64,000 nucleotides of DNA from Deltaproteobacteria bacterium (GTDB lineage: Bacteria; Bacillota; Clostridia; Acetivibrionales; UBA4821): contig JBLMYQ010000068.1 of NCBI GenBank assembly GCA_050258375.1, positions 27,913-91,912 on the forward strand, read 5' to 3'. This document shows positions 9,621-60,902 of the stretch, piece by piece; within the stretch, counting starts at the first letter, position 1; each line of letters opens with the position of its first letter. The notes under the pieces are model-generated. The model was not told the origin of the DNA. It searched no databases and worked only from the letters and a program-made list of their open reading frames with translations. The position numbers and the translations under genes are program-made.

Positions 9621-9652
9621 TTTCTTTTCCTTTAAATAATTCTATATTAAAT

Positions 9653-9681
9653 TTATATGTCAAAAAGCTATAAACGTCAAT
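9653..9681 (-). promoter_or_regulatory. Candidate sigma-A-type promoter (TTGACG-17 nt-TATAAA)
   Basis: On the minus strand, -35 TTGACG (9676-9681), a 17-nt spacer and -10 TATAAA (9653-9658), in the 98-nt gap upstream of the GT2 gene. Confidence 0.35.
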
Positions 9682-9718
9682 AAAAAAAGCATTTATCAAT
9701 AATAAAAATTCATCAGCA

Positions 9719-11878: not shown

Positions 11879-11937
11879 AATATCCCTTCATTTCTTACTT
11901 CTAAAAGAATGTTATTCCTTCTATATAACTTTTGTGA

Positions 11938-13160: not shown

Positions 13161-13161
13161 T

Positions 13162-14773: not shown

Positions 14774-14788
14774 TAAAATCACCCATTT

Positions 14789-28633: not shown

Positions 28634-30538
28634 TTATTGTAATAGTTTTTTGTATTTATGCTCTTTATCATGGAATTCCTGTTGCCATAATTCTAAACAT
28701 AGTAATCCCCATATATTTCTTCCAAATTTTAATTCAGAATCGATTTTTTCCAATACAATTCTATTATTAATTATGTCCCTATTTAAAGACTTAGTTGTCG
28801 AAAATATGTCCCTTACATAATCCTTTGCTTCTCCTTTTAACCATTCACTTAATGGGACAGGAAAGCCCATCTTATCCTTTCTATTAAGAATCGCTGATGG
28901 CAAATATTCTTTCATGGCACTCTTCAAGCCATATTTCATATTACCATCCTTGAATTTCACATTTGATGGAATAGTAGCAACAAACTCTACCAATGGATGA
29001 TCAAGGAATGGTACTCTTGATTCCAAGCCATGTGCCATGCTTACCCTATCCTCAACCTGAAGTAACGCTGGTAGCAATGTCTTAAAATCAAAATGAGTCA
29101 TGCTGTCAAAGTATGATTCTTTTCCTACATTATCAGCTTTGAATATTGATTTAAATGTTTCATATGGAGAATATCCATCTAACATGTCCCAGTTAACTTC
29201 TTCTCCAAGTGAAGGCGCCCTGTTTATTAATTTAAAATATCTTTTGTCTAAATCTTCAAACATACCCTCTTTCCAAAACTCTTTAAGCATTGGCTTATAA
29301 TTCTTTAATGATGTCAAATTTGGTATAATTGATTCATAGGTAACAATAAAATTGCCTGAATTTGAAGTCCCATCAATAGCTGCTTTTATACACTGTTCAA
29401 AATAAGCAATTAAATATCTGGTATAGCCACCAAAAATCTCATCTCCACCTTGTCCACCAAGAACAACCTTTCTATATTTACTAGCAAGACTTGATACCAT
29501 ATATTGAGGAAAAGAACCAGGTCCTGCAACTGGATAATCCATATGATATATTACTTTGGAAATATTATCTATAAAATCTTTGACTGATATATCAATTTCA
29601 TGTAGTTCAAAATTTCTCCAATTTGCTAATTCTCTGGCATAATAACTTTCATCATATTCACTACTTATTGAAAATTTACCTGTAAATCCCTTGAAATCAT
29701 CTCCTGTATTTTTTGTAGCTAAAGAAGCAACAATACTTGAATCGATTCCACCACTAATATAAGCACCAACTGGCACATCACTACGCAAATGATAATTTAC
29801 TGAATCTAAAAGTAGTTGGTGAATTTTTTCCTCAAAATATTTAGCTGTGTGATCAAAGTCTAAATTATAATACACCTGCCAATAACGCTTAATTGATATT
29901 TTACCTTTATGTACTATAAGCTTATGGGCAGGAAGTAATTCATTAATACTTTTAAATAAGGTTTTTCCTGCAAGGCATAATTGAAAATATAAATAATCTT
30001 TTAATCCATTAAAGTCTGTTTCAATTTTTTCTACAAAAGGCAATAAAGCTTTAACTTCTGACGCAAATATTAAATTATTATCAATTACTGAGTAATAAAA
30101 AGGCTTTATTCCAAAACGATCTCTTGCACAAAATAATTTTTGATTTTTTTCATCCCATAATGAAAAGGCAAACATTCCTCTTAAATGATCGAGACAATCT
30201 TCTCCCCATTTTTCGTATGCACGTAAAATAACCTCAGTATCAGAATTTGTTTTAAATTTATTAACCCCAATTTCATTACGCAACTCAATATAGTTATATA
30301 TTTCACCATTAAATGATATGCAACTACCTAATTCATCTTCCATTGGTTGATGACCAGATTCAATATCAATAATACTTAACCTTCGATGAGCAAATCCTAC
30401 ATACTCACGACAATGATTCCAAATTCCCTCACCATCAGGACCTCTGTGCTTTTGTAAATAATTCATTACATCTAATTTTTTCTTTATGTTAGATATACGT
30501 TCATTCTTAAGGTTTATTAATCCTGCAATGCCACACAT
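28634..30538 (-). CDS. asnB: Asparagine synthetase B-type amidotransferase, paralog 2 (subfamily II)
   Basis: 634 aa. MCGIAG, AHRRLSIID, PP-loop SGGIDSS, GGQGGDEIFGGY, SMAHGLESRVPFLD. Confidence 0.85.
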   Translation of the reverse strand: MCGIAGLINLKNERISNIKKKLDVMNYLQKHRGPDGEGIWNHCREYVGFAHRRLSIIDIESGHQPMEDELGSCISFNGEIYNYIELRNEIGVNKFKTNSDTEVILRAYEKWGEDCLDHLRGMFAFSLWDEKNQKLFCARDRFGIKPFYYSVIDNNLIFASEVKALLPFVEKIETDFNGLKDYLYFQLCLAGKTLFKSINELLPAHKLIVHKGKISIKRYWQVYYNLDFDHTAKYFEEKIHQLLLDSVNYHLRSDVPVGAYISGGIDSSIVASLATKNTGDDFKGFTGKFSISSEYDESYYARELANWRNFELHEIDISVKDFIDNISKVIYHMDYPVAGPGSFPQYMVSSLASKYRKVVLGGQGGDEIFGGYTRYLIAYFEQCIKAAIDGTSNSGNFIVTYESIIPNLTSLKNYKPMLKEFWKEGMFEDLDKRYFKLINRAPSLGEEVNWDMLDGYSPYETFKSIFKADNVGKESYFDSMTHFDFKTLLPALLQVEDRVSMAHGLESRVPFLDHPLVEFVATIPSNVKFKDGNMKYGLKSAMKEYLPSAILNRKDKMGFPVPLSEWLKGEAKDYVRDIFSTTKSLNRDIINNRIVLEKIDSELKFGRNIWGLLCLELWQQEFHDKEHKYKKLLQ

Positions 30539-31970: not shown

Positions 31971-34532
31971 TTACTTTCTTTCAGTATATAATTTATTTTT
32001 AATTTCTTTTGCTAAGCTAAATAGTGGTGGATATTTTTTTAATATACCCTTTAATTTTTGAATTATTTTAGTACCAACTCGTTTTATTTTAGTACCAACT
32101 CGTTTTATTTTAGCACCAACTCTTTTTATTTCGTTTTTCAAAGTAACTAAAAAAGCTCTACCACCTTTTACTAACTTTTTTAATTTGTTATTTTTCTTCA
32201 ATTTTGCTCTTAAACACTTCCATAATGAATCCGATTCTTTAATTTGTATTTGTATTTCTTTAACTACTACTTCCTTTATAGGTATTCCTGATTCTAATAA
32301 ATCTCTAACTGGCGCATCTAAAATTGCTTCATCAAAACTTTTCACGAAGCTCTCATAAGAGTATCTACCAGATTCTAATATATCTTCATATGCTCTATCT
32401 ACTAAAGCCTGCAAATAATTATCATCATTAACCTTTCTAAGAACTTCCTCTATATTACTGTAATCTTTCTTTAGTTCTATATAATGTTTTTCTGGTATTA
32501 ATATATTAGAATAAGAGCCTTCATATAATATTAAAGCCGTTTTTAGTGAAATCGATTCAAACATTTTAGGAGATATTTGGTTCATTATTACCTTGCCTTC
32601 ATGTTCAGACAAATAGTCTTTAAATATTTCATCATAGCTTACATTGGGTCTTTCTTCTAATTCTTTCTCAATATTTGCTCTAATAGTACCATAATCATCA
32701 AATACATTGGAGCCACTTTCTGTTCCTAAAGTCGCTTTACAACTTTCAAGAAAATCAACCCATCCATTTCCATATATTCTCTTTTCCTCCTCCCATTCAA
32801 TGTCACATGGGATTCCTCTATCTTCACATATCTTGCGCATTTTTTGCCCTATAAGCTTTTTTTCCTGTCCAAGATTACCATACCAATATGGCAATGGACG
32901 TCCACGATAACCAATTATAGTTTTTCGTTCTGATATGGGTTTTAATTTCTCAGATGTTTTTAGTCTTTTAGAAACAAAACCTGTTAAGGTAGGAATAAAT
33001 TTAACATATGGAAACCTAGACTTCTGATATACTACATCAATATACTTTTGTGGAACAACTGTAAAAACGATGTTTATTCCTAAAGTTTCAATCCATTGAC
33101 GCGCTTGTTCGGTATTTTCATATTCATCCTGTATATACAATACTTTTATTCCACTAAATTCTTTAAGCTCATTAGCATAAGATTCAGAAATGTGATTTTT
33201 CAAGCTCAATCTAACTGAATAATGAATAACAATAACATCAAAATTTGACAAGTTACATGTACATTCTGAACCATTACAAGCATTTTCAAAAAAAATATTG
33301 TTTACCGAGTAATTTGCAAAACTCTCAAGATGCTCTTTTATTGTTAGCACATGAATTGACCTTTTATCATATAAGATTAAAACATTTCTCCTGCATTGCG
33401 ATTTAATATCTTTCTTTTCATTACTTATTTCTTGTAAATTATTCATTAATAAAGAAAAACTATTATTATAATCTTTTTTCTTAGCTGCTAAAATTCGATT
33501 GTTAATTGAATCTTCATCATATCTACTTGCTGAAACCATCTTAATACCCTTTTTGAATTCATTAATATTTTTTGCGAAATAAAACAAATTGTTATACTGT
33601 TCTAATGCTAAAATTGGCACACTTATAACAGGTAGTCCACAGGAAAGATATTCGAAGGCCTTTAAAGGAAGAGAGTTTTCTATCATTTTCGTCTGTACAA
33701 ACGGCATAATAGCAACAGTAGCTTTTAATGCAATCTTTCTAACATCCTTAATATTCATCTCTCCAAAATACTTCACATTTTTATAACTTAAGAGCTTTTG
33801 CCAATCGTCTATATTTTGATCTGAACGACCGCAAAACCAGAATTCCCAATCATTCATTTTACTTATAAGCTGTTTTAATAATTTATAATCTAATCTATTG
33901 TTTATTCCTCCTTGGTAAAAAACAACTTTTCTTTTTACAGAATTAACTATTTTGTCAATCTCATATTGTTTAAGTCCCCAAAAATCAAAATCGCATCCAT
34001 TTGTTAGAACAATATTCTTCCCTTTATACCCACCATTTTCCTGATAGCTTTTTAGTACATTTTCAGATACAGCAACTAAAAGATCTATGCTAAGTAAGGA
34101 TTTTTTAATATTATTTTTTAGTATTTTTGTTGAAAGGTCATCTGTCGTAATCATAGAATAATAATCTTCTGTAGCATGATATACTTTTAAAGATGTGCAT
34201 ATTCTATTAATATAATCTGCAAATTGAGTATTATATACCCATAAAAGCGGATGTATATAACCTTTCTCTTTCAATGCCTTGTTTAATAAAGAGTTTTGCT
34301 TATTATCATAGATATTATAAACATGTAAGACTACAATGTTTTCAATTTTTGTATCCTCATATCTATAAATTTCTTCATTCAAATCAGGTTGTACAAAAAC
34401 TACAGGGATTTTTTTTGCCAATCTTGTTGCATAATGATAACGATTGCTTATAGGTTCTGTGAACCAATCAGACCACGTTAGCATCATAACGCAATCAAAA
34501 CTCTCCTTGATGTTTGAGAACTCACTTAACAT
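31971..34532 (-). CDS. Two-domain glycosyltransferase (N-terminal GT-B domain plus CgeB-like domain) with a basic heptad-repeat C-terminal tail
   Basis: 853 aa. GGAGG SD. C-terminal half ...ATLGTESGSNV...ISPKMFESISLKTALILYEGSYSNILIPEKHYIELKKDYSNIEEVL. Tail EIKRVGAKIKRVGTKIKRVGTKIIQKLKG. Confidence 0.65.
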   Translation of the reverse strand: MLSEFSNIKESFDCVMMLTWSDWFTEPISNRYHYATRLAKKIPVVFVQPDLNEEIYRYEDTKIENIVVLHVYNIYDNKQNSLLNKALKEKGYIHPLLWVYNTQFADYINRICTSLKVYHATEDYYSMITTDDLSTKILKNNIKKSLLSIDLLVAVSENVLKSYQENGGYKGKNIVLTNGCDFDFWGLKQYEIDKIVNSVKRKVVFYQGGINNRLDYKLLKQLISKMNDWEFWFCGRSDQNIDDWQKLLSYKNVKYFGEMNIKDVRKIALKATVAIMPFVQTKMIENSLPLKAFEYLSCGLPVISVPILALEQYNNLFYFAKNINEFKKGIKMVSASRYDEDSINNRILAAKKKDYNNSFSLLMNNLQEISNEKKDIKSQCRRNVLILYDKRSIHVLTIKEHLESFANYSVNNIFFENACNGSECTCNLSNFDVIVIHYSVRLSLKNHISESYANELKEFSGIKVLYIQDEYENTEQARQWIETLGINIVFTVVPQKYIDVVYQKSRFPYVKFIPTLTGFVSKRLKTSEKLKPISERKTIIGYRGRPLPYWYGNLGQEKKLIGQKMRKICEDRGIPCDIEWEEEKRIYGNGWVDFLESCKATLGTESGSNVFDDYGTIRANIEKELEERPNVSYDEIFKDYLSEHEGKVIMNQISPKMFESISLKTALILYEGSYSNILIPEKHYIELKKDYSNIEEVLRKVNDDNYLQALVDRAYEDILESGRYSYESFVKSFDEAILDAPVRDLLESGIPIKEVVVKEIQIQIKESDSLWKCLRAKLKKNNKLKKLVKGGRAFLVTLKNEIKRVGAKIKRVGTKIKRVGTKIIQKLKGILKKYPPLFSLAKEIKNKLYTERK
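32070..32132. repeat. Tandem repeat, 3 x 21 bp, in frame (encodes KIKRVG[T/A] x3)
   Basis: Units 32070-32090 and 32091-32111 are identical (agtaccaactcgttttatttt). Unit 32112-32132 differs at 3 positions. Confidence 0.9.
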
Positions 34533-36468
34533 TATATGCCTCCATCCATAAATAAAGATTTATCCATCTCCAGAATGTTGGATCTTGAATAGAATTCTTT
34601 TCTATTGCATCTTGATATACGAATGCTTTTTCTGGAAGAATAAACGACTTCATTTTTTCGTTTTCTAAAGCTTCTTTCATAAGAGATTTTAAAAACGTTT
34701 TTTGCCATGTCCGTTCCGGGGTAGCAAAACCAAGTTTAGATCTTCTTAATCTTATATTTTCTGGTATTAACCCTTTCATTCCAGTACGCATAACACTTTT
34801 TGTGCTACCGTTCCTAATCTTGTAATTCGACGGCAATGTAAATACAAATTCAGCGAGCCTATAATCCAAAAAGGGAACTCTACTTTCTACTGAATATGCC
34901 ATAGAATTTCGATCTTCGTAATGTAAAAGTGATTGAATATTTGTATGAAAAGTTAGCTGGTATAGAACATTATTCAACACTTCTTTATCATCAAAGTTTT
35001 TGATTTGAGAGTATTTAGGAAAAATTGCTTGTTCTTTAATATTATTTTCAAATTGGGGATTAACCCAATCAACTATAGGTGAATTTTTTTTGTTTTTAAC
35101 AAATCTGCTAACAAAAGCATTCATAGAAGGTGGTAATATATTAATCCAGTTCATCTCTGGATGAAACCGTATATAACATAATAATTCCCATATAAGTTTA
35201 GCGTGTTTGCTTTTAATATTTAATTCATTGAAATAATAATAAGCTAAAGGTACGTACCCTGCTAGAAGTTCATCTGCACCTTGTCCATCCAGCATTACTT
35301 TTATACCATGTTCATGAACAAGTTTAAAAACAGACCATTGAGCAAATATGCTTGTTGAACCAAAAGGTTCATCTTGATGCCAAACAATCTTTTTTATATC
35401 TTTTTTAAAATCTTCAGGTGTAGGTTCAATGAAACTAGCATTAACTCCTGTATGTTTTATTACCGATTGCATATATTTTAACTCATTAGCCTCTTTTTCT
35501 TGAAAATGTGAACTAAAAGTACGCTGAATATTGCTTTTGCCTTCGCCTTCTAGCATATCATGCATAATACATACTAGTGATGAGCTGTCCAATCCACCTG
35601 ACAAACAACTTCCTACCTCAACATCACTACGTAAATGTAATCTTACACTATCAGTTAGAAGCCTCCTAAACTCACTAGATGCATCTTCATAAGAGATATC
35701 GTTATTGATTTTTAAATCAGGCTTGTAATATTGGGTATTGGTTTTTTTTATTGTTTCAAAGTTTAAAATTAAGTTATTCCCAGGTTCCAGCTTAAAGATA
35801 TCAGCAAAAAATGTTTCTTCACAATATTCAACAGCCGAATACGCTAAGAATTCGTATACAGCACGTTCATTACATTTCGATTTGATGAAAGGGTACTGTA
35901 ATAATTGCTTTATCTCAGAACCAAAAGCAAAATGATTACCATCAGCATAATAATAAAACGGTTTTATCCCAAAGCGATCCCGAGAGCAAAACAATAATTT
36001 CTTTCTTAAGTCAGCTAACGCAAACGCCCACATTCCATTAAAATGCTCTACACATTTTTCTCCCCATTCTTCATAGGCATAAATTATTACTTCGGTATCA
36101 GCGTTAGAAATAAAAGAATAGCCTTTACATATAAGCTCATCCCGAATTTCTAAATAATTATATATCTCACCATTAAATGTAAGCCAAATAGTATGATCCT
36201 TATTAGCCATAGGCTGTCTACCTGAAGACGAAAGGTCTAATATAGCTAATCGTCTATGACCAAAAGCTAAATTGGCTTCAATATTATTAGAACTTAAAGG
36301 ATTTATGCTCTCATTAAAAAAAGATTCACTTTGAGAATTACAAGTATTAATAAGAACAATCCCTTCGCCATCAGGACCGCGGTATTTAATTATATTATTT
36401 GAATCAATAACATTCGATAAATATTTAGTTACTCCATTACTACAAAACAGGCCCGTAATGCCACACAT
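34522..36468 (-). CDS. asnB: Asparagine synthetase B-type amidotransferase, paralog 3 (subfamily I)
   Basis: Start set at the ATG at 36468, so the mature N-terminus is Cys (MCGITG; AAGGAGAA SD). GHRRLAILD, SGGLDSSS, QDEPFGSTSIFAQW, MLDGQGADE. Confidence 0.85.
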   Translation of the reverse strand: MCGITGLFCSNGVTKYLSNVIDSNNIIKYRGPDGEGIVLINTCNSQSESFFNESINPLSSNNIEANLAFGHRRLAILDLSSSGRQPMANKDHTIWLTFNGEIYNYLEIRDELICKGYSFISNADTEVIIYAYEEWGEKCVEHFNGMWAFALADLRKKLLFCSRDRFGIKPFYYYADGNHFAFGSEIKQLLQYPFIKSKCNERAVYEFLAYSAVEYCEETFFADIFKLEPGNNLILNFETIKKTNTQYYKPDLKINNDISYEDASSEFRRLLTDSVRLHLRSDVEVGSCLSGGLDSSSLVCIMHDMLEGEGKSNIQRTFSSHFQEKEANELKYMQSVIKHTGVNASFIEPTPEDFKKDIKKIVWHQDEPFGSTSIFAQWSVFKLVHEHGIKVMLDGQGADELLAGYVPLAYYYFNELNIKSKHAKLIWELLCYIRFHPEMNWINILPPSMNAFVSRFVKNKKNSPIVDWVNPQFENNIKEQAIFPKYSQIKNFDDKEVLNNVLYQLTFHTNIQSLLHYEDRNSMAYSVESRVPFLDYRLAEFVFTLPSNYKIRNGSTKSVMRTGMKGLIPENIRLRRSKLGFATPERTWQKTFLKSLMKEALENEKMKSFILPEKAFVYQDAIEKNSIQDPTFWRWINLYLWMEAYNVK

Positions 36469-36470
36469 AG

Positions 36471-37157
36471 TCAATTCTCCTTGCGCACGCTTCTAATTTT
36501 TTTTAAATATTGTTTAATATCAAATTTTCGTCTAAAACTATTTGGATTAACCAATTGACATTCCTTGTTATATGCCCATATATCCTTTAAATAGTTGTTT
36601 TGAAATTTCATAACTGAAAAAACAGCATGCTTATATTTTGGTTTATTGTTACAGTTTAAATGCATGTTCTCCGAGTGTTTAAAGATAATAAATTTATTTT
36701 CACCTTGCTTAATATCAAATCCGCATATATCGTTATCAGGATAATTTTTATTTGTTGCGAGTAAATATTCAACAGATGTCAACTTTTTGCAGCTAATTTC
36801 AAACAGGAATGCTTTATGTCCTATTTCCAATGTAGTTCCTTTAATAATTAAAGAAGTACTATCAAAGCTTATTAACGCGCCACTTGGTATGAAAAAGCAA
36901 ACATAAAAGATCTGATTATTGTATTTAATCTCAAATTCTAAATCATTATCCCCTTTTTTAAATGTAAAACTAGTTAAATCAAAAGAATAACTAAATTCTT
37001 TATCAGTTGGCAAAACTTCAAAAAATATTGATATCTCATTATTCAACAAAAACATATAACTATCATTTTCTTTATAGAATCGTCTGTTTTTTGTGGACTC
37101 TACCGACTTAATAAAATATTCTTGAAAATGTAAAAATTCATTTGAATCAGATACCAT
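36471..37157 (-). CDS. Hypothetical protein (no motif recognised)
   Basis: 228-aa ORF tightly packed between the GT gene and asnB paralog 3. No TM segments. Basic C-terminal tail (KKIRSVRKEN). Weak SD. Confidence 0.55.
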   Translation of the reverse strand: MVSDSNEFLHFQEYFIKSVESTKNRRFYKENDSYMFLLNNEISIFFEVLPTDKEFSYSFDLTSFTFKKGDNDLEFEIKYNNQIFYVCFFIPSGALISFDSTSLIIKGTTLEIGHKAFLFEISCKKLTSVEYLLATNKNYPDNDICGFDIKQGENKFIIFKHSENMHLNCNNKPKYKHAVFSVMKFQNNYLKDIWAYNKECQLVNPNSFRRKFDIKQYLKKIRSVRKEN

Positions 37158-37216: not shown

Positions 37217-38347
37217 CTAAATTCTTTTATATAATTTATCTAAGTATTCAGCAATTTTTGTATAGTGATGATACTCTTGTGCATACTGTCTTGATATTTT
37301 ACCAGTATCCTTCCACTTAGATTCATTATCTAGCAAATCTTTTATTACTGAATAAATGTTATCAATGTTTGCATTAATCACAGGATGCTTATGCGGTAAA
37401 ATAGCTTCAACTTCAGGGCGTATATATGTAACAACAGGCTTACCTATTGACATACATTCAACCGCAGTCGACCCATACCAGCCTGCCCTAAGCTGATCAA
37501 TTACAATGTCTGCCTGAGCCTGAAAATATTTTAAATCATTGCTTTCTATATTGTCAAAAAAAATGAACTCTACCTTATACCCTTCTGACTGCAATCTTTC
37601 TACCGCTTCTTTTATATATTGTGTTCCCTTAACATCCCCTCTAGTCTGGCTATTGCCAAAAGAGTGATATATTAATGTCTTTTCTGTTTTAGGAAGTCTA
37701 AATTCAGCAGGTATTTCATCATAACTTATGGGTTTCCATTCATTACAATCTATTGGATTATCTATCCATGTAATATTTTTATATGATGCTGCTAAATCGC
37801 CATTAGATAAATTCAAATCTGCTAATTCAAAAGCTTTTTGTATTAGTTCTTTTTTTTGAATAGATGTATTACAATCTCGCCTAACTGTTTCTTCACATTC
37901 ATTACACGCCGAATAAGGATAAACAATGTCTACTTGCTCTGTTCTTACATCACATCCCCACCAACTTATTACAACCTTTTTACCCATCTTCTTAAGATAT
38001 TTGATATCATCTAGTCTTTCCCACAAAGAATATATCGGATTTAATAATCCAAACCCACTATGAAAATGAAATATATCATAATTATCAATTGCATAAAGAA
38101 GGAATTCTATTTCTCTTGTTTTATCTACCTGCAAACCATTGGAGCCGTCAATTTGCAAATCAATATCACAGCCTCTTGCAAGCCACTTAAATGGAGCAAA
38201 ATCAAACACCATATAATCAGCATTATATCCCATCGAACGTAAGCCTTTGGCATATAAATATGGCTGATAAAGTGCAACAATTGGCGCTTGTAAAACTCTA
38301 GGCTTAGATATCTTCTTAATATGTATTGCAAAATCTTTTATAAACAT
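37217..38347 (-). CDS. Putative GT-B fold glycosyltransferase
   Basis: 376 aa. C-terminal ...LRAGWYGSTAVECMSIGKPVVTYI resembles the GT1/GT4 nucleotide-binding helix region. Overlaps the wzm stop, suggesting translational coupling. Confidence 0.5.
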   Translation of the reverse strand: MFIKDFAIHIKKISKPRVLQAPIVALYQPYLYAKGLRSMGYNADYMVFDFAPFKWLARGCDIDLQIDGSNGLQVDKTREIEFLLYAIDNYDIFHFHSGFGLLNPIYSLWERLDDIKYLKKMGKKVVISWWGCDVRTEQVDIVYPYSACNECEETVRRDCNTSIQKKELIQKAFELADLNLSNGDLAASYKNITWIDNPIDCNEWKPISYDEIPAEFRLPKTEKTLIYHSFGNSQTRGDVKGTQYIKEAVERLQSEGYKVEFIFFDNIESNDLKYFQAQADIVIDQLRAGWYGSTAVECMSIGKPVVTYIRPEVEAILPHKHPVINANIDNIYSVIKDLLDNESKWKDTGKISRQYAQEYHHYTKIAEYLDKLYKRI

Positions 38348-39126
38348 GATTGAAAATATCCTTTCAACTTTCTAAAAAATCTCAATCCAAATACCCAGAG
38401 AAATAAAGATATAAGTATAAGATAACCAACTCCCCAAAAATCAGGAGGATGCTTTCCTACAATTACTTGCCTGAAGGAATTTGCAATCTGGTATAAAGGA
38501 TTATAGAAGTTAATATTCCTTATTATTGGCGGCATCATTTCTAAGGGGTAAAATATTGGAGTAAAAAACACCAATATTAATAATACTGAAGATACAATTT
38601 GAAGTACATCTCGAACAAAAACATGAAGAGCAGATAAAAAAAATCCTACTCCTATCAAAAAGAACATTTGCAAAGGTATCAATAATATTAGCCAAAGTAT
38701 ATTCAGACTAAGTCCTGTTCCTTCAATAATCAAAAGTGGAACAAGTACCAAAAAACCAACTGCCATAGGAAATATACCCATTAAAGTTGAAGCCATTGGC
38801 AGCAATTCAACCTTAAATACTATATTTTTTACTAAAGCTGTTCCACTTACAACTGAAGATGTAGCTGTTAATATTCCCTCTGATATTGCCAACCAGGGTG
38901 CATAACCGCTTGTAAGCCAAATAACAAATGTTAAAGATTTATCACTTCCAGGCATTTTTGAATTAAATACAAACCCAAATACATATATATATATTCCAAA
39001 TAACAGAAGTGGATTAATTATTGACCATAGCATTCCAATTCTTGAGCCTAAATATTTATCCCTTACATACATTTTAAATAGATTTACTACTATTCTAAAA
39101 TCCTCTTTGTTAAAACCGAAAAACAT
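38338..39126 (-). CDS. wzm: ABC-2 type polysaccharide exporter permease
   Basis: Six hydrophobic segments; typical Wzm N-terminus ...YVRDKYLGSRIGMLWSIINPLL. Start set at the ATG at 39126 (AAGGGGA SD 6 nt upstream), 2 nt after the wzt stop. Confidence 0.85.
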   Translation of the reverse strand: MFFGFNKEDFRIVVNLFKMYVRDKYLGSRIGMLWSIINPLLLFGIYIYVFGFVFNSKMPGSDKSLTFVIWLTSGYAPWLAISEGILTATSSVVSGTALVKNIVFKVELLPMASTLMGIFPMAVGFLVLVPLLIIEGTGLSLNILWLILLIPLQMFFLIGVGFFLSALHVFVRDVLQIVSSVLLILVFFTPIFYPLEMMPPIIRNINFYNPLYQIANSFRQVIVGKHPPDFWGVGYLILISLFLWVFGLRFFRKLKGYFQSCL

Positions 39127-39128
39127 TT

Positions 39129-40352
39129 TTATTCCCCTTTTATCCATTCATATTTACAATAGTAATCTGGCTTTGAAGCATTAAATATAACAAGGTTAAC
39201 TACTTTTACTACCGTAGCCTCCTTAGCAACTGCTATTCCACTACTATCCAATACCTCACACAAAACTTCATAAACACCTTCACTGAATTTAATATCTCCT
39301 ACTTTTACATCGATATTTATCCTATTCCCTTTTAATATTGGAGGCAGCTTAGCTCCATCTTGAGATGCCAAGTTTTGCATTATTAATGTTCCGTCCATTT
39401 TTATTAGCGAAAGCCTAATATCCCACTCTAATAAATCATCCACTCCCTCTATCACAACATGAACCATTAATTCCTCATATAACTCAAAAATTGTTTTTTT
39501 CTGCATATCTGATGAGACTAAATAATAATCATTTATCTTTACAGCGCCCTTTAATTTGCTTGTTTCAACTCTAATGATAAGCTTATTATTTAGTTCTTCC
39601 TCTTCCTTTTTTTTAACCGATTCAATATAAGCCCTTGTAACAGAAAGAGAATCTCCATCCATGATAATCTTTCCTTTATCTAACCAAATAGTTCTATCTG
39701 CCATTGATGTGATAGTACCCATTGCATGGGATACAACAATTAGAATTTTTCCTTTTGAGCATAACTCTTGAATTTTTTTTGCAGATTTTAATGCAAAATC
39801 TGCATCACCAACCCCTAGAACCTCATCAATTATTAATATCTCAGGCTCAACGAAAGATAACATTGCAAATGACAACCTTGCCTTCATACCAGATGAATAT
39901 GTTCTAACAGGCTTATTAATATACTCTCCTATATCAGCAAATTCAATAATTTCATTTAAAAGTTTGTCCACTTCGCTTTTAGTCTTGCCATGCAGTTCTC
40001 CCTCAGTATAAATATTTTCTATACCAGTCAGTTCTTCTCTAATACCAACTCCAAGCGTCATTATGGCATTTATTTTTCCATTAATTTTTATATCACCGCT
40101 GCTTTGTTCAGCGAACCCGCCAATAAGGCTTAGCAGCGTAGACTTTCCAGCTCCATTCGGGCCAATAATCCCTACCCTTTCTCCTTCATTTATCTCAATA
40201 TTAATATTTTCTAATGCTATAAAATTATTAGCTTTATTCTCATTTGATATTGCAGTCTGCTTAAAAGTTTTAATATTTTTAATAACTGAGGATTTATTTA
40301 TGGCAAAAATTTTATAGACATCATTCATTTTTATAAATAATTTATCTGCCAT
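39129..40352 (-). CDS. wzt: Polysaccharide ABC exporter ATP-binding protein with a C-terminal Wzt_C-like glycan-binding domain (copy 2)
   Basis: 407 aa. Walker A GPNGAGKST, signature YSSGMKARLSFA, Walker B LIIDEVLGVGD, H-loop VSHA. About 150-aa C-terminal beta-rich domain with FSEGVYEVLCEV. Confidence 0.85.
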   Translation of the reverse strand: MADKLFIKMNDVYKIFAINKSSVIKNIKTFKQTAISNENKANNFIALENINIEINEGERVGIIGPNGAGKSTLLSLIGGFAEQSSGDIKINGKINAIMTLGVGIREELTGIENIYTEGELHGKTKSEVDKLLNEIIEFADIGEYINKPVRTYSSGMKARLSFAMLSFVEPEILIIDEVLGVGDADFALKSAKKIQELCSKGKILIVVSHAMGTITSMADRTIWLDKGKIIMDGDSLSVTRAYIESVKKKEEEELNNKLIIRVETSKLKGAVKINDYYLVSSDMQKKTIFELYEELMVHVVIEGVDDLLEWDIRLSLIKMDGTLIMQNLASQDGAKLPPILKGNRINIDVKVGDIKFSEGVYEVLCEVLDSSGIAVAKEATVVKVVNLVIFNASKPDYYCKYEWIKGE

Positions 40353-41488
40353 TTTAGCTCCTTTTTAATTAATTGTTTAGTCTTATTCTCACCCTCAACT
40401 TTGAGCTTAATTGCATTTCCATTTAACCATGTCAAAGCTTCATATCCCTTATCTACAGTTTTCTGACCTTCAACTAACGGTGAAGAAAGGAATAAACAAA
40501 GTAAATATTCTCCAGGTGCCAGATAAAAATCCTGGATAACTAATGATATATTATTAGTTTTAGGTTTATCTATTTCTATATTTTTACTTCCAGTCATTGC
40601 CAAAGACCATCCAATTCCTTCTATATGTCTTTCAATAGAGAAGGCTACTGAAAAGCGATTTTCTACACATTTTTTATGTTTTTTTACTTGAAACTTATAT
40701 ATTAATGGCTTTCCCGATGTTGCAAATGCGATATTTTCAGTCATTTCTTTCTTATTTAAAAAGGTTATCTCATCAGATTCTATAAAAGGTATATTTAAAT
40801 ATTTTTGAACCGCTTTATAGGTTTCACCTATATAATCTATACCTTGCTTTGAGAGAACAACAGTCCTTTTACACAATTTCATTAAAGATGTCCAATCATG
40901 AGACACGATAATTCCTGTTGCACCGGCTGACAAAAAAGAACGCAACCTATTCCATGCCTTACCTTGAAAGTATTCATCTCCTACAACTAAAAATTCATCA
41001 ACCAAAATAATTTTTGCAGGTATTGCAGTAGCTACCCCAAAAAGCAATTTCGCCTTCATTCCTGATGAATATGTTCTTATTGGCTCATGAAAGAAATCTC
41101 CTAATTCAGTAAACTCACAAACAGATTTTATTATGTTATTTAATCTTTCTCCTTTTAATCCTCTAAAGCGGAAATAATCTCTACAATAATTTTCTCCAGT
41201 GAGTTCCACGTTAAAGAAGGAACCCAATTCAAAAATGGAAACAATGTCCCCTTCGGTTATCAGTTTACCACTATCTTTATCATAAACTCCACCTATTAAC
41301 TTTAGTAAAGTTGATTTGCCTACTCCATTTTTGCCAATGATACCAAGCAGTTCACCAGCTTCAACCTCAAAAGAAATATCATTTAATATTAAAATCCTTT
41401 TTTGCTTTGTAGAAAGGATAGATCTTATTGTAGGTCTTTTATCATCTAGAAATGATTTATATACGTTTTCTAATTTAATTAGTCCTAT
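40331..41488 (-). CDS. wzt: Second Wzt-type ABC ATPase (copy 1) with a divergent C-terminal domain; no canonical start codon, ATA start proposed
   Basis: The track ORF starts at TTG 41227, downstream of the Walker A. The same frame is open to a TAG at 41504-41506 and encodes IGLIKLENVYKSF...GKNGVGKST (Walker A), then YSSGMKAKLLFG, ILVDEFLVVGD, VSHD. No ATG/GTG/TTG lies between 41503 and 41228. SD AGGAAGAGG ends 8 nt before the ATA at 41486-41488. Confidence 0.6.
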   Translation of the reverse strand: MGLIKLENVYKSFLDDKRPTIRSILSTKQKRILILNDISFEVEAGELLGIIGKNGVGKSTLLKLIGGVYDKDSGKLITEGDIVSIFELGSFFNVELTGENYCRDYFRFRGLKGERLNNIIKSVCEFTELGDFFHEPIRTYSSGMKAKLLFGVATAIPAKIILVDEFLVVGDEYFQGKAWNRLRSFLSAGATGIIVSHDWTSLMKLCKRTVVLSKQGIDYIGETYKAVQKYLNIPFIESDEITFLNKKEMTENIAFATSGKPLIYKFQVKKHKKCVENRFSVAFSIERHIEGIGWSLAMTGSKNIEIDKPKTNNISLVIQDFYLAPGEYLLCLFLSSPLVEGQKTVDKGYEALTWLNGNAIKLKVEGENKTKQLIKKELKWQINYL

Positions 41489-41594
41489 TTTACTCGCCTC
41501 TTCCTAACTTTGATAAGAAGAACTTGGCTTAACAAAGTTTTCTAGAATTTATATATAAACCCGAAATTATTCATATCACAATAGTGCCTCAACA

Positions 41595-41624
41595 ATTATA
41601 TTCTTACTTTCATAAACTTTGCAA
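41595..41624 (-). promoter_or_regulatory. Candidate sigma-A-type promoter (TTGCAA-18 nt-TATAAT) upstream of the wzt pair
   Basis: On the minus strand, -35 TTGCAA (41619-41624) and -10 TATAAT (41595-41600), in the 237-nt AT-rich gap between wbqC-like and wzt copy 1. Confidence 0.3.
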
Positions 41625-41725
41625 TATAATGTTATACTTTTTCCATTTTTTCTATTTTAAATAAATTAAATTCAGTTATAAATCAAATACATATTTTTAT
41701 TTATAAACTTTTATTATATTCCTAC

Positions 41726-42433
41726 TTACTTACATTTTAGTAAGTCCTTTGTATTTTGAAAGCCACAGTTAAAAAGCATATCAATTATTGATAAACCCGC
41801 AATAAAGTTCTCTGATTTTAATTGGGAATATACCGGATGGCAAAAATTCTGATAAATAAGTTTAATACCTGCCTCAGAAAACTTTTCATCCTCTTGATAA
41901 CCTGATGCACCATTTCCGCAGATATAGGAATCTCCCCCAACACTTTTTACTATCTCTATTAGTAAATCAGTCGATGTTATACTTTCAGATATATTTAATT
42001 CAGATTGTAAAACAAAAGAAGAATTTAAATTTAATCTATTACATATTTGATTTATATTTGCCATGTTATATTCAGCAAGAGAATTAAAATCTTTATTTAA
42101 TATGTGGTTATACCAATCAATCACTTGATTATAGTAAAAACTTTTCTTATAATTGTATTCAATTGTTTTAAATAGTTTTTGTCTCCAATTAATCGTATTA
42201 TCTATTTCAATATCTTTTATCAATTGTCTTCCATGCTCTCTAATAACGGGGCATCTTATCCAGTTTGGTTTCCCATTTATCATTAACTTAACCCGATTAG
42301 TCCAACTACTCATTGTATTACCGCTTTTGGGATAATCTATATTATCCATAAATACGAAAATATCTGCCTTAGAAATTTTATCAAAATAACCAAGCCAAGG
42401 AAAAAAATTAGGTTGGTGTATAGCTACTTTCAT
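41726..42433 (-). CDS. WbqC-family protein
   Basis: 235 aa. MKVAIHQPNFFPWLGYFDKI is the characteristic WbqC-like N-terminus. Confidence 0.8.
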   Translation of the reverse strand: MKVAIHQPNFFPWLGYFDKISKADIFVFMDNIDYPKSGNTMSSWTNRVKLMINGKPNWIRCPVIREHGRQLIKDIEIDNTINWRQKLFKTIEYNYKKSFYYNQVIDWYNHILNKDFNSLAEYNMANINQICNRLNLNSSFVLQSELNISESITSTDLLIEIVKSVGGDSYICGNGASGYQEDEKFSEAGIKLIYQNFCHPVYSQLKSENFIAGLSIIDMLFNCGFQNTKDLLKCK

Positions 42434-48290: not shown

Positions 48291-50174
48291 TCACCCTAAA
48301 ATAAATTTTTTACACCAAATTTCGAAGTTCAATAATGACCAAATAAGTAGTCTTCTATTTTGTTTGCCCTCTAAATGTTGATTTAACAATGTCTTAATTG
48401 CTGCAAAATCCATAAAATTATAAATGTTTGCATTCTTATCAAGTAGTATTCTTTTAATATATTCTATACTTTCTCCCCTAAACCATGATGCATCAGGCGC
48501 TGAAAACCCTTGTTTTTTACCCTCCGCAATTTCTGGGGGAATGAACTTGCTCATTGCTTCCCTAAACAAAAGCTTACCATCTTTTGTTTTATTGTAATAA
48601 TTTGTTGTTTTAGGTCCTGGATCATTTTCATTCAAACTTATGATTTCAGTTAAATTTTTAAGCTTAAATCTTGCTGGTACTTTCATAGCAAAATCAACAA
48701 GGTCATTATCTAAAAACGGCACTCTTGTTTCTAGACTATGTGCCATACTTAATTTATCTTCTATAATAAGTAATCCATGAAGAAACGTCTTAGATTCAAA
48801 GTATAATGAATGATTTACATAATCTTCAGGTCTTGTTAACTCATGAGCATACGTTTGAAATACGCTTTTAAATATATCTCTTGTAGAAACATGACTAATC
48901 TTTCTCCAAACAGGACTAAATACATCTGCTGTAATATCACTGGGAATTAATCTCTGCCAAAAATTATAGTAATTATCTATATAATCTTCAAAATTATCGT
49001 TAGATATTGCCGTATAATAGCGCCAAGGATATCCAGCGAATAATTCATCTCCACCAGTTCCAGACAATACAACCTTTACAAACTTGGATGCAAGCTGGGA
49101 AACATAATAATTAGGATAACTTTGTCCTACTCTTGGTTCCTCAACATGCAAAACCAAATTTGGCATTATTCTTTCCATATCTCCAGCCTTTAACACCATT
49201 TCATAGTGCTCCGTCTTAAATAAAGAAGACATATATTCAGCTTTTTGTCTTTCATCGAATCCTAATTCTAAGCCTGATGCTGAACTGAGATCAAATCCGC
49301 ATGTAAAGGATTTTATATATGGTAATTTACTTGCAGCGATTGCAGTAATAGAACCGGAATCAATACCTCCACTTAAATACGCACCTAATTCTACATCACT
49401 GACTAATTGCCTCTCAACCGCTTGCTTAAATAATCTCTGTAATTCTTCTATATATTCTTCCTTACTGGAATACATTTGATTTTCTTTAAAATCAAAATCC
49501 CAAAAATTTACTAAATTCAACTTGTTTGAATTGTTTTTAATATCAATCTTTGCATAATACCCAGCAGGGAATATGCTCACTCCTTGAAATAAAGTCTTTT
49601 CAGTAAAAATATTTTGAAAAGTAAAATATTCAAGCATACCCTCCAAATCTAAATTCTTTTTAAACTCTGGATGTTGAATTATAACTTTCTGTTCTGACCC
49701 AAAAATAAAACTATTTCCAATGAATGAATAATATAACGGTTTTACCCCATATCTATCTCGTGCTATAAAAAGTTCTTTAGTTTTACTATCCCAAATCACA
49801 AAACAAAACATCCCATTAAAATGTTTAACACAATCAACGCCCCACTGGACATACGAATACAAAATAACTTCTGTGTCTGTTGATGATTTAAATGAATATC
49901 CGATTTTCTCAAGCTCTTTTTTTAACTCTCTAAAGTTATATATTTCTCCATTATAGACAATTGCATACCTTTTGTCAGTTGTAAACATCGGTTGAATACC
50001 CATTTTTGACAAGTCAATTATTGCTAATCGTCTATGTCCTAAGCCTATATGCCCATCAACAAAAAAGCCTTCTCCGTCAGGTCCTCTATGCGCTATTGCT
50101 CTTGTCATTTTTTCTAGTATTTTTATTGAAACAGGCTCATAATTAAAATTAATAATTCCTGCAATACCACACAT
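48291..50174 (-). CDS. asnB: Asparagine synthetase B-type amidotransferase, paralog 4 (subfamily II)
   Basis: 627 aa. MCGIAG, GHRRLAIID, PP-loop SGGIDSG, GTGGDELFAGY, SMAHSLETRVPFLD. Confidence 0.85.
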   Translation of the reverse strand: MCGIAGIINFNYEPVSIKILEKMTRAIAHRGPDGEGFFVDGHIGLGHRRLAIIDLSKMGIQPMFTTDKRYAIVYNGEIYNFRELKKELEKIGYSFKSSTDTEVILYSYVQWGVDCVKHFNGMFCFVIWDSKTKELFIARDRYGVKPLYYSFIGNSFIFGSEQKVIIQHPEFKKNLDLEGMLEYFTFQNIFTEKTLFQGVSIFPAGYYAKIDIKNNSNKLNLVNFWDFDFKENQMYSSKEEYIEELQRLFKQAVERQLVSDVELGAYLSGGIDSGSITAIAASKLPYIKSFTCGFDLSSASGLELGFDERQKAEYMSSLFKTEHYEMVLKAGDMERIMPNLVLHVEEPRVGQSYPNYYVSQLASKFVKVVLSGTGGDELFAGYPWRYYTAISNDNFEDYIDNYYNFWQRLIPSDITADVFSPVWRKISHVSTRDIFKSVFQTYAHELTRPEDYVNHSLYFESKTFLHGLLIIEDKLSMAHSLETRVPFLDNDLVDFAMKVPARFKLKNLTEIISLNENDPGPKTTNYYNKTKDGKLLFREAMSKFIPPEIAEGKKQGFSAPDASWFRGESIEYIKRILLDKNANIYNFMDFAAIKTLLNQHLEGKQNRRLLIWSLLNFEIWCKKFILG

Positions 50175-58140: not shown

Positions 58141-59721
58141 TTATTGCCTAACGTATACCTTTTTAGCAGGCTTCTTTGGTATTATTATCAACTGCCCTAT
58201 CGCAAGCTGGTCGGGATTTGCAATATTATTTATTCTTATCAGCTCCTGAAGTGATACATTAAACTTCTTTCCGATTTTCCAAAGTGTGTCTCCAGGTTGA
58301 ACAAAATATACTATTATGCTTGGCTTTAACCCAAAGACTCCTTCATCTGGCTCTATTCCTTCTGCCTTGTTAATTATATTAAGCTTGGAATTTTTGTAGA
58401 GCTTTATTTGTGTTTTTAATACAATCCTTACATCTACATTCCCATCAGGTTCAAGATTGTACCCGCAAGAAACTGTTTCAACATTAACTTTATACATCAT
58501 TTCCGGCTCAGCTTCTTTTATATCCATTGAATTCATAAAAGGAATTTCATATTTATATGACGAAGGAGTCTTCATCTCGCCTGACGAATACAAGAACCTT
58601 ACTTCCACCGCTCCATTTATTGTTACTTTTCCATGCTGAACCTTTACATCTATAACAATCGGCTTGCATGTCATGCCATTTATCTTTTTTACTTCTGATT
58701 TTTCCGGAAGCTGAACTTTATCCTTAAGCACCAGCTCATTTTCTGCTTCAGCAGCTATTTGATTTGCATAGAGCTCTTTTCGTTCCATATCAATCATATA
58801 ATCCGGACTGTACATGTCAACAATCATTTGTTTTTGCTCTTTTACAAAAGCTCTCGCATTCAGTTCAACCGCAGCTTTAAATCTTAATATTCTAAGCTCG
58901 CCTTCAGTATCTTCTTCAGCAATTGCAGACAGGTCACCGACGACTGCATCCACATCACAAAAAGCATTTTCATCAACACCTGGAATATCCATGAACTGAG
59001 TAAACGGGAAAGTATATTCTACGGTTTCTATGCTTCTATCCTCATCCTCACCTGAATAAAGTGCTCTGACATTTACTTCGCCCTTAACTATTACCTTATT
59101 GTCTGAAACCTTTATCTCCCTGGAAATACTTGCCTCAGCTGATAAAACTTCAAAAACAGATGGCATGGCTTCCGGTATATCAACTTCCTCTTTAATTGTA
59201 AACCTATCTGAGCATTCGCCGATAAACTGACATATTTCGAATTCTTCTTTTTGTTTTTGAATATTATCTTCATCAAGAGTATCAACAATCACTTCTGCTT
59301 CAACTCTTTCATTTATTACTACCCCTAACTGAGCAATAGCCTCAACAACTATTTTCCTTTCATTAAGTATTTCATATTCGGAGTTTAGTATTATTCCATC
59401 AACATCAGCCGTCATACCCTGTTTTGCGCCATCAATTTCTAATGGCTCCTTGAATGGTACACTTGCATTAAGCGCTCTTATAGGTCTATCCTCATCCTTG
59501 GCAAGATATATAATGTTGAAGTTGACCACCCCGCCAAGAACCACCTTATCTGTAAGTACCTCTCTCTCGTTAACCATAACATTGCTGTCAATGCTTAAAA
59601 CACCAAGTAAATCAGCCTTTGCATCCGGAATTATCAAATCTCCCTGCACTGAGAATTGCAGAGATTCCTCTCCAACTACCCTTTTTATTCTTAAAGGCTC
59701 CCTGACTAACTCTATAGCCAT
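58141..59721 (-). CDS. DUF3794-repeat protein with a C-terminal LysM domain
   Basis: C-terminal YFVQPGDTLWKIGKKFNVSLQELIRINNIANPDQLAIGQLIIIP is a LysM domain. Repeated beta-rich modules upstream. Start set at the ATG at 59721 (GGGAGGGA SD 8 nt upstream). Confidence 0.75.
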   Translation of the reverse strand: MAIELVREPLRIKRVVGEESLQFSVQGDLIIPDAKADLLGVLSIDSNVMVNEREVLTDKVVLGGVVNFNIIYLAKDEDRPIRALNASVPFKEPLEIDGAKQGMTADVDGIILNSEYEILNERKIVVEAIAQLGVVINERVEAEVIVDTLDEDNIQKQKEEFEICQFIGECSDRFTIKEEVDIPEAMPSVFEVLSAEASISREIKVSDNKVIVKGEVNVRALYSGEDEDRSIETVEYTFPFTQFMDIPGVDENAFCDVDAVVGDLSAIAEEDTEGELRILRFKAAVELNARAFVKEQKQMIVDMYSPDYMIDMERKELYANQIAAEAENELVLKDKVQLPEKSEVKKINGMTCKPIVIDVKVQHGKVTINGAVEVRFLYSSGEMKTPSSYKYEIPFMNSMDIKEAEPEMMYKVNVETVSCGYNLEPDGNVDVRIVLKTQIKLYKNSKLNIINKAEGIEPDEGVFGLKPSIIVYFVQPGDTLWKIGKKFNVSLQELIRINNIANPDQLAIGQLIIIPKKPAKKVYVRQ

Positions 59722-59822
59722 ATTCAAAATCCCTCCCGCTTTAAAATGTTAATAATAAAAAAATTACTGTAAGCTAATTTATATATATTGCTTGTTTCAA
59801 AAAAATAGAACTACTTTGTTTC

Positions 59823-60791
59823 TTATTCCTTAATTTGAACTCCTTTATAATAATAGCCAAGTATATCCTTATAATTGCAGCCCTTCTGCGCCAAAGCATC
59901 AGCCCCGCATTGACTCAATCCTACTCCATGCCCGAATCCTTTTACTTTGAACAATATTTTCCCTTTTTTATCCTCAATTAAGAAATTAGTAGATTTGAGA
60001 TTAAATATGCTTCTTATATCAGTACCACTGAATGTTTTGTTTCCAATATTGATATTTTTAACTCTTCCTCCTCCTGTATAGCTCACAATCTTTATGCTTT
60101 GGAATACTTTTTGAGAATCCACTTTAAAATCTGCACTAAACTTATTCAGCCTTTGGACAAATTCCTCAGCAGAAAACTCCACTTCTGAAAAATAGCCTGA
60201 AGAACCTTCTTCACCCGGACTTTTTACAGCTCTAAGGTAAGGAACAGCTACTCCATTCCATGCATCCTCGGAGTTTTCCGTTTCTCCTCCGCTGTTTGCA
60301 TGAAAAACAGGATTTGCAATTTCGTTTTCATAGTAAACCATTTTCCCGGCAGTACTTTTAACAGCCCAGGAAATCCTATCCCAGTAGTCTCTGGCTTTTG
60401 AAGCAGGCCATTTAGCAAGTACTTCCTCCTTACTTATCCATGCCTGACAGTGAGCAGAGTCCGTGCAGATATCAGCACCTTTGTGCTCGGGGAGATTGCT
60501 GCCTCCAGATACAGCCTTTTTATAAGCATAGGTTCTTGCTGCAACAGCCTGAGCCTTTAACGCTTCTACATGATAAGAAGCCGGCATTTCTGCTGCGACA
60601 ACCCCCTTTATATACTCTTCAAAATCAATCTTCTCAACCTTTTTTGTCAAATGAAAATAAACCTTTATCCGATTATCCTTTAATCCATCAGTATAATCCT
60701 TTTTGAATCCTCCACAGCCTTTAATAATTAACAAAGGTATCAGAATGGCAATAATAATTATAAAAATCAGGTAATAACCAATCTCTCTCAT
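59823..60791 (-). CDS. spoIID: Stage II sporulation protein D (SpoIID/LytB domain)
   Basis: 322 aa. N-terminal TM anchor, VVAAEMP...EALKAQAVAARTYA, FHANSGGETE, GFGHGVGLSQCGA. Confidence 0.88.
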   Translation of the reverse strand: MREIGYYLIFIIIIAILIPLLIIKGCGGFKKDYTDGLKDNRIKVYFHLTKKVEKIDFEEYIKGVVAAEMPASYHVEALKAQAVAARTYAYKKAVSGGSNLPEHKGADICTDSAHCQAWISKEEVLAKWPASKARDYWDRISWAVKSTAGKMVYYENEIANPVFHANSGGETENSEDAWNGVAVPYLRAVKSPGEEGSSGYFSEVEFSAEEFVQRLNKFSADFKVDSQKVFQSIKIVSYTGGGRVKNINIGNKTFSGTDIRSIFNLKSTNFLIEDKKGKILFKVKGFGHGVGLSQCGADALAQKGCNYKDILGYYYKGVQIKE

Positions 60792-60847
60792 ACCTCACCC
60801 CCTAGTCCCCTTTGCTCTTTTATTTATATTCGGCTAAAGAAAAACAA

Positions 60848-60900
60848 AGTACACAAAAAACCCTTCGGATATCAATTTTCCGAAGGGCTTTTTGTGTACT
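60848..60900 (-). terminator. Long-stem (22 bp, 1 mismatch) terminator hairpin after the SLH-protein gene
   Basis: agtacacaaaaaacccttcgga / tccgaagggctttttgtgtact with a 9-nt loop. Core CCCTTCGGA/TCCGAAGGG flanked by A/T runs on both sides, so potentially bidirectional. Starts 3 nt after the stop at 60903. Confidence 0.7.
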
Positions 60901-60902
60901 CC

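Follow-up and report, generated by a model that had tools for sequence, protein, structure and literature searches.

Wzm/Wzt exporters are the model for how a finished polysaccharide is recognised and threaded through a membrane channel. In those which have been studied, identical subunits make up a symmetric homodimer, although the structures show asymmetric behaviour. To our knowledge, the characterised systems each possess a single wzt gene, and their Wzt is homodimeric. A 64,000-nucleotide stretch of contig JBLMYQ010000068.1 (assembly GCA_050258375.1), the whole of which is called the window here, encodes two unlike Wzt-type ATPases, wzt1 (copy 1) and wzt2 (copy 2), beside a single permease gene, wzm, and it raises the question of how two different motors serve one channel. 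On balance, the evidence leans slightly towards a single Wzm/Wzt (type V) glycan exporter of composition Wzm2-Wzt1-Wzt2, in which the two ATPases would form a heterodimer with a shared, heteromeric carbohydrate-binding domain (hetero-CBD).

The genes of the window all lie on the minus strand, and wzt1, wzt2 and wzm form one unit of overlapping or abutting genes (Table 1). A profile search of every open reading frame (ORF) in the window found exactly two Wzt-type nucleotide-binding domains (NBDs) and one Wzm, in agreement with the single wzm of the initial annotation, and Pfam scans of the tested window ORFs gave no second ABC2_membrane match. The overlap of wzt1 and wzt2, together with the AAGGAG beside it, suggests translational coupling, as far as this can be read from sequence. 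The start of wzm is more likely ATG 39126 than ATG 39147; the former lies two bases past the wzt2 stop, follows an AAGGGGA and gives 262 aa, the length found in orthologues and also by the gene caller. The window wzm shares 39-56% identity with the wzm of the paired loci described below.

The initial annotation attributed complete ABC motifs to both ATPases, and all the motifs it quoted are present in the translations: GKNGVGKST, YSSGMKAKLLFG, ILVDEFLVVGD, VSHD and LAPGEYLLCLFL in copy 1, and GPNGAGKST, YSSGMKARLSFA, LIIDEVLGVGD, VSHA and FSEGVYEVLCEV in copy 2. Walker A, the Walker B Asp-Glu, the H-loop His and YSSGM are invariant columns in both family alignments. The beta-rich C-terminal extension with a Wzt_C-like pattern that had been read from each sequence is likewise supported, by weak matches to Wzt_C (PF14524; 21.5 bits for copy 1 and 18.3 bits for copy 2, both under the Pfam gathering score of 30.4), by profile alignment and by structure models. 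PF14524 is the sole domain match outside the NBD in either copy, and some orthologues of each carry a precomputed match to it. The family profiles match the full-length Wzt of Aquifex aeolicus (8dku/7k2t) at 2.6e-66 for copy 1 and 8e-80 for copy 2, in alignments which extend past the hinge helix and into the CBD of A. aeolicus as far as residues 361 and 352, respectively, and the L.(P/E)G.Y.L pattern of both copies falls on A. aeolicus LNLAPGKYTLTV. AlphaFold2 models (predicted local distance difference test, pLDDT, 86.7 for copy 1 and 81.6 for copy 2) show an NBD followed by a beta-sandwich of ~125-150 residues, and both have full-length Wzt chains of A. aeolicus as their best PDB fold matches (400-417 columns), other top matches being mycobacterial Wzt and TagH/TarH. 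On these grounds each copy is classed as a complete Wzt-type ATPase with a Wzt_C-like beta-sandwich domain.

The NBDs of the two copies are 35% identical over 237 residues. Their C-terminal domains (CTD1 and CTD2) had been described as otherwise dissimilar, which holds for BLASTP, where no similarity was detected, and fails at the level of profiles: a profile-profile alignment (hhalign) of the two beta-sandwiches has a probability of 31% and E 5e-4, with 13% identity over 78 columns, which suggests that they are related, if only remotely.

The paired arrangement is found well beyond the window. The search with copy 1 returned ~31 clusters with full-length coverage (35-71% identity), the remaining matches covering the NBD only, and in 11 of the 12 loci examined from either family a copy-1-type gene has a copy-2-type gene as its immediate neighbour, with one wzm next to the pair. 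Starting from copy-1 members, the pair and its wzm were found on a JGI metagenome contig and at the loci numbered L002/L003, L004, L005/L006, L087, L088, L089 and L092; wherever the contig is long enough, a copy-1-family member has these neighbours. Starting from distant copy-2 members, a second ATPase was found upstream at L091, from Cuspidothrix issatschenkoi, with a CTD1-type domain, and at L090, with a copy-1-like tail. Fifteen further copy-1 and copy-2 matches appear paired by indirect linkage of the two match lists. The order wzt1-wzt2-wzm is fixed except at L004, where wzm comes first, and the 22-nt stop/start overlap recurs at L002, at L005 and on the JGI contig, with 4-nt overlaps at L004 and L087. 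The paired loci span 30-62% GC, and their sources include Planctomycetota and Cyanobacteria (the cultured Cuspidothrix). L093 is a partial exception: here (465-3019) an APS-kinase gene comes after the distant copy-1-like gene, and another ABC NBD begins at the end of the contig, an arrangement which may point to sulfation of the glycan and to a pairing less strictly kept.

No singleton of the copy-1 or the copy-2 clade was found among the loci examined. As a background, 80 ordinary Wzt loci were listed from reference genomes by generic NBD peptide patterns; there is no copy-1 orthologue among them, and 79 of the 80 have a single wzt among the matches listed, the usual order being wzm-wzt. At L035, from a Pyrinomonadaceae metagenome-assembled genome (MAG), two copy-2-like wzt genes (5392-7092 and 8690-9967) lie 1.6 kb apart beside one wzm, a doubling which differs in kind, as the copy-1 family is not involved. 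In a neighbour-joining tree of 124 NBDs, copy-1 (21/21) and copy-2 (22/22) sequences are each monophyletic. The NBD distance between copy 1 and copy 2 (0.718) equals in practice that between copy 1 and generic Wzt (0.717), copy 2 being nearer to generic Wzt. The CTD1 profile matches only 120 cluster representatives among 1.84 billion proteins; the full-length matches are nearly all ~380-400 aa with CTD1 at the C-terminus, and their mean identity to the window copy is 45% across phyla, with loop and tail conserved. Because wzt1-wzt2-wzm recurs amid very different organisms and neighbourhoods, the doubling belongs to the transporter and appears to be an old, fixed feature of it rather than an adaptation to the cluster of the window. 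The suggestion that two specificities match the two biosynthetic units of the window fares poorly for the same reason.

Strict co-occurrence, fixed order and overlapping genes are expected of the subunits of one complex, and a heterodimer of Wzt1 and Wzt2 is favoured for this reason. Together with co-divergence, they fit a heterodimeric NBD pair, which the initial annotation had offered as its second option, better than two cluster-matched specificities; the contact between the two proteins is what we infer from this fit. In such a complex, the two motor positions which are filled by one protein in the canonical Wzm2-Wzt2 would be occupied by two anciently diverged Wzt proteins. NBD1 and NBD2 would form the ATP sandwich together, and CTD1 and CTD2 would pair, probably through exchanged conserved C-terminal tails, into a hetero-CBD beneath the NBDs. 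This domain would control access to the Wzm channel by recognising the lipid-linked polymer once it is complete and capped. In the window, Wzt1 would be translated from a weak ATA start codon, which is considered below.

The literature on CBD asymmetry provides a reason why a two-subunit complex could evolve. Isolated CBDs dimerise via exchange of their C-terminal strands. In the full-length transporter of A. aeolicus, only one of the two NBDs carries the CBD dimer, which has a single O-antigen site/chain and consists of one 'active' and one 'inactive' CBD; the pocket is completed by Val380 of the neighbouring protomer and by the hinge-helix Tyr233, and a loop (residues 302-308) docks the CBD on the NBD (PMC9445017). 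The two-gene form would fix this existing asymmetry of the homodimer in two specialised subunits. Wzt1 and Wzt2 are predicted to be asymmetric in the very regions involved in A. aeolicus, namely hinge, tails and docking loop. Copy 2 has a longer N-terminal insert (residues 20-40, low-confidence) and a long hinge/linker helix (235-264), and the hinge of copy 1 is short. In the monomer model of copy 1 the CTD1 strands (241-365) have pLDDT ~90 and the last 8 residues fall below 50; a tail modelled as disordered in the monomer is what would be expected of a strand packing on a partner. The top conserved element of CTD1, FSIERHIEGIGWS, aligns with the A. aeolicus docking loop. The hinge tyrosine is kept in both families (Y230 in copy 1, Y242 in copy 2). 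The cap-binding Asn313 and His350 of A. aeolicus are not conserved in copy 1, which has Ser at both aligned positions, a change that would be expected for a different cap and is uninformative on cap binding.

Several observations weigh against the heterodimer. Both copies keep all catalytic motifs and the hinge Tyr, and each could in principle form a homodimer. A degenerate ATP site, sought as a hallmark of heterodimers, is present in neither copy, both being consensus. No fused Wzt1-Wzt2 protein occurs among the 120 CTD1 matches, the long ones being repetitive proteins matched over short stretches. The co-divergence of the two families (r 0.88 for NBDs and 0.84 for CTDs) is expected of any two genes sharing a genome, and these values are not counted as evidence of contact. 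The APS-kinase gene of L093 separates the copy-1-like gene from the next ABC ATPase, and the co-occurrence sample consists of 12 loci plus the indirect matches, rather than a full census. Moreover, if ATA is as weak in the host as in model bacteria, a 1:1 ratio of Wzt1 to Wzt2 would be hard to reach. A bolder version of the heterodimer is put forward more tentatively, as possible and somewhat short of probable: an obligate Wzt1/Wzt2 pair in which the asymmetry seen by cryo-EM is genetically fixed and both CTDs contribute to one composite site of the hetero-CBD, which would accept a complex terminal sugar bearing several modifications. Such transporters would constitute a class of exporters of their own, spread across phyla and linked to diacetamido-uronamide polymers.

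Among the alternatives, the one to be taken seriously, though itself rather unlikely, is that Wzt1 and Wzt2 form two alternative homodimers docking on one Wzm2, their CTDs choosing between two glycans that differ in their caps, or between two forms of a single glycan. Each protein does have complete ATPase motifs, its own CBD-like domain and its own tail, but independent motors would be expected to be frequently lost or swapped, and neither clade yielded a singleton. The CTDs are very different and both proteins have the glycan-contacting hinge tyrosine; on the other hand, the conservation of CTD1 across phyla is unusual for a domain tracking variable caps. Several sugar pathways are indeed present in the window (rhamnose, GDP-heptose, diacetamido-uronic acids), yet the pair is kept in 11 of the 12 loci amid very different neighbourhoods, some with only one obvious pathway in their flanks. 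The overlapping, coupled genes are typical of subunits made in a fixed ratio, whereas the ability of CBDs to act in trans (PMC9445017) would suit two homodimers. Two specificities are also conceivable within the Wzt1/Wzt2 heterodimer, since both subunits keep the glycan-contacting hinge tyrosine, and such a function may be possible there.

A second alternative, which is improbable, is that copy 1 is dying or silent here, its ATG start having been lost to ATA, and that the transporter runs on Wzt2 alone. The wzt1 frame is open from 41503 to 40334, with a stop (TAG 41506-41504) upstream, and contains no ATG, GTG or TTG from that stop to TTG 41227, which falls past Walker A; full-length Wzt1 therefore requires the ATA at 41488-41486. 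In model bacteria, translation starts very weakly from ATA, which is listed among the initiation codons of translation table 11. The Met of 20 orthologues (33-71% identity), which use ATG or TTG at this position, aligns exactly opposite the ATA. Furthermore, a strong Shine-Dalgarno-like site precedes it with the same spacing as in the L005 orthologue, where GGTTGAGG lies 8 nt ahead of a TTG start at the homologous position. An automatic gene caller gave only a 292-aa fragment lacking the P-loop, but the NCBI annotation accepts the ATA start (MGE5329811.1, 385 aa, beginning MGLIKLENV), and an independent Logan assembly is identical across 13,169 bp, ATA codon included. The spacer 5' of wzt1 measures 237 nt, as opposed to ~20-40 nt in orthologous loci, but all 385 codons are uninterrupted, in DNA of 31% GC, and none of the 40 invariant positions of the family has changed. 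Owing to the orthologue Met alignment, the Shine-Dalgarno site, the NCBI annotation and the agreeing assembly, wzt1 is taken as 41488-40331. The initial annotation had allowed for a copy 1 that is not translated, for which the intact frame and the Shine-Dalgarno site ahead of the ATA give no support. Lastly, a recent local tandem duplication without special meaning, as adjacency, shared strand and shared domain plan might suggest, is rejected with hardly any reservation, given the 35% NBD identity, the barely alignable CTDs, the nearer relatives of each copy in other phyla rather than in its neighbour, the reciprocal monophyly of the families and the wide conservation of the pair.

The closest characterised relative is A. 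aeolicus WzmWzt (7K2T, 8DKU), the best profile and fold match for both copies, which shares the Wzt-type NBD with YSSGM, the hinge helix with a conserved Tyr, the jelly-roll with its LAPG.Y strand and the ABC-2 Wzm. It differs in having one wzt and a Wzt homodimer, where the window has two paralogues, 35% identical in their NBDs, co-conserved with one wzm, and systems of its type have the order wzm-wzt instead of the wzt-wzt-wzm of the window. The cap-binding domains of the Escherichia coli O9a and Raoultella terrigena O12 Wzt (PF14524) belong to the same beta-sandwich fold family, from which the window domains stand apart by their scores below the gathering threshold, CTD1 being a small subfamily of its own. 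The TagGH/TarGH teichoic acid exporters share the NBD family (NCBIfam TagH models at 1e-35 to 1e-55) and are typical of organisms like that of the window, with sporulation and SLH genes. They are homodimeric, however, and the solved TarH and Staphylococcus aureus TagH chains (264-270 aa) lack a C-terminal domain; Bacillus subtilis TagH, of 527 aa, has a longer C-terminal region (integrative model 9a4o_B). The best NCBIfam models of both copies are Wzt/RfbE and TagH, all far under their equivalog cut-offs: for TagH, copies 1 and 2 score 120 and 168 bits against NF010066 (cut-off 320), and 126 and 187 bits against NF010065 (cut-off 538).

Unlike NBD pairs have precedents in other transporters. 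EcfA/EcfA' and OppD/OppF are encoded by two unlike, co-transcribed and co-conserved NBD genes, and RbsA-RbsC2 has a fused double NBD on a homodimeric permease. The EcfA-A' heterodimer (4hlu) is among the fold matches. All of these are importers, however, of other ABC types and without glycan-binding C-terminal domains. In the window, neither ATP site looks degenerate. With regard to the surrounding genes, the Bordetella wbm O-antigen locus is similar in its WbpA/B/D/E-like pathway, Asn-synthase-like amidotransferases, WbmS-like domain and formyltransferase. Its product, a polymer of 2,3-diacetamido-uronic acid or amide whose terminal residue is modified, is exported through Wzm/Wzt (PMC2615507); unlike the window, the locus is described with single wzm and wzt components and no wzt pair.

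In the full-text literature searched, much of the older and subscription literature being out of reach, no description of a heteromeric or two-Wzt transporter was found; 'two wzt' are mentioned in passing for Massilia violaceinigra (PMC9834719). The parts themselves (Wzt, Wzm, a Wzt_C-like domain) are ordinary, and what is new is that two unlike copies are conserved together and that copy 1 belongs to a small subfamily distinct from the rest. If the heterodimer is real, a two-subunit version would allow each ATP site, hinge and glycan-binding domain to be mutated separately, which a homodimer does not permit, and this would tell the cap-sensing half from the half which drives transport. In addition, the module of wzt1-wzt2-wzm with WbqC and Asn-synthase-like genes could serve to annotate glycan clusters in many uncultured bacteria and in cyanobacteria.

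Table 1. Coordinates in the window of the transporter genes, their domains and signals, and the adjoining genes.
Feature	Positions	Strand	Description	Basis
wzt1 (copy 1)	40331..41488	(-)	385 aa; rare divergent Wzt-type ATPase subfamily; ATA start 41488-41486, TAA stop 40333-40331	ABC_tran 1.7e-17; top PDB fold match full-length A. aeolicus Wzt 8dku_A, E 7e-31, 417 columns
wzt1 NBD and short hinge helix	40784..41488	(-)	aa 1-235	Walker A GKNGVGKST (41335-41309), FELG at the Q-loop position, YSSGM signature, VDE Walker B, VVGD D-loop, SHD H-loop; all invariant in the copy-1 family alignment
wzt1 C-terminal beta-sandwich (CTD1)	40334..40783	(-)	aa 236-385	conserved FSIERHIEGIGWSL loop, LAPGEYLLCLFL strand, conserved tail KxLKWxI
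Shine-Dalgarno-like AGGAAGAGG	41497..41505	(-)	8 nt 5' of the wzt1 ATA start	
wzt1/wzt2 overlap	40331..40352	(-)	22 nt, wzt1 end and wzt2 ATG	AAGGAG just upstream
wzt2 (copy 2)	39129..40352	(-)	407 aa; Wzt-type ATPase nearer canonical Wzt/TagH	ABC_tran 1.9e-22; fold match 8dku_A, E 1.1e-34, 416 columns; identical to NCBI MGE5329810.1
wzt2 NBD and linker	39558..40352	(-)	NBD aa 1-234; hinge/linker helix aa 235-264	conserved EEEEL
wzt2 C-terminal beta-sandwich (CTD2)	39132..39557	(-)	aa 265-407	FSEGVYEVLCEV, conserved tail SKPDYYCKY
wzm	38338..39126	(-)	ABC-2 permease, 262 aa; alternative ATG 39147 gives 269 aa	ABC2_membrane 3.6e-10
GT1-like gene	37217..38347	(-)	376 aa; overlaps wzm end	weak Glycos_transf_1 match
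wbqC-like gene	41726..42433	(-)	just upstream of wzt1	PF08889 6e-65

The window as a whole is one long glycan cluster, comprising pgm, galU, a Bac_transf initiating transferase, rmlABCD and large multi-domain glycosyltransferases. It also contains GDP-heptose-type genes (SIS, GHMP kinase, NTP transferase, HAD), four Asn-synthase-like amidotransferases and a WbpA/B/D/E-like set for 2,3-diacetamido-uronic acids, and directly upstream of wzt1 there are DegT, FemAB-like, formyltransferase, WbmS-like, methyltransferase, GNAT and WbqC genes. Based on this neighbouring gene content, the cargo is likely a polymer which contains many 2,3-diacetamido-uronic acids or their amides and whose terminal residue is modified. 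This cap at the chain end, which CTD1 and CTD2 would read, is plausibly produced by the WbqC, GNAT, formyltransferase, methyltransferase and FemAB-like genes. Across the paired loci with enough flank (n=10), Asn-synthase-like genes are present in eight and WbqC in six. When 8 related loci were searched by tblastn, the 376-aa GT1-like gene, which may be a fourth member of the module, was found close to the transporter in 5, with 60% identity at L090 and 26-33% at L091, L005, L089 and L002.

The spacer between wbqC and wzt1 (41489-41725) is AT-rich and holds TTGCAA-18-TATAAT at 41624-41595, a possible internal promoter which is not claimed here; matches in the promoter/terminator scan were no commoner than in shuffled sequence.

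The four Asn-synthase-like paralogues (18338-20218, 28634-30538, 34522-36474 and 48291-50174, all on the minus strand) suggest a product in which several uronic acids are amidated or in which amidino groups occur. On the same strand, rmlABCD occurs together with a GDP-heptose-type set of SIS isomerase, GHMP kinase, nucleotidyltransferase and HAD phosphatase (4474-14782), a combination which recalls the rhamnose/heptose S-layer glycan clusters of Aneurinibacillus. A 719-aa ORF (9719-11878), in 27% GC DNA, has no Pfam match.

As for the host, the minus strand at 58141-62924, near the right end of the window, encodes SipL (SPOCS plus LysM), SpoIID and a protein that has three SLH domains, and from these the organism is an endospore-forming Firmicute with SLH-anchored wall proteins, not one of the Deltaproteobacteria. 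The NCBI entries MGE5329810.1 and MGE5329811.1 are labelled 'MAG: Deltaproteobacteria bacterium', and this label or the binning looks wrong. Candidates for the nature of the glycan are a wall polymer, an S-layer glycan and, if the host is a diderm Firmicute, an O-antigen.

Two further features lie on the minus strand. At 20270-23356, a DAO plus BFD [2Fe-2S] oxidoreductase, a Pyr_redox_2 protein and a DUF1667 protein resemble the anaerobic glycerol-3-phosphate dehydrogenase set, and the trio may supply a glycerol-derived substituent. At 31971-32100, the C-terminus of an 853-aa TuaH-like glycosyltransferase is a tandem basic heptad, KIKRVGA followed twice by KIKRVGT, a tail which may bind the membrane or the polymer.

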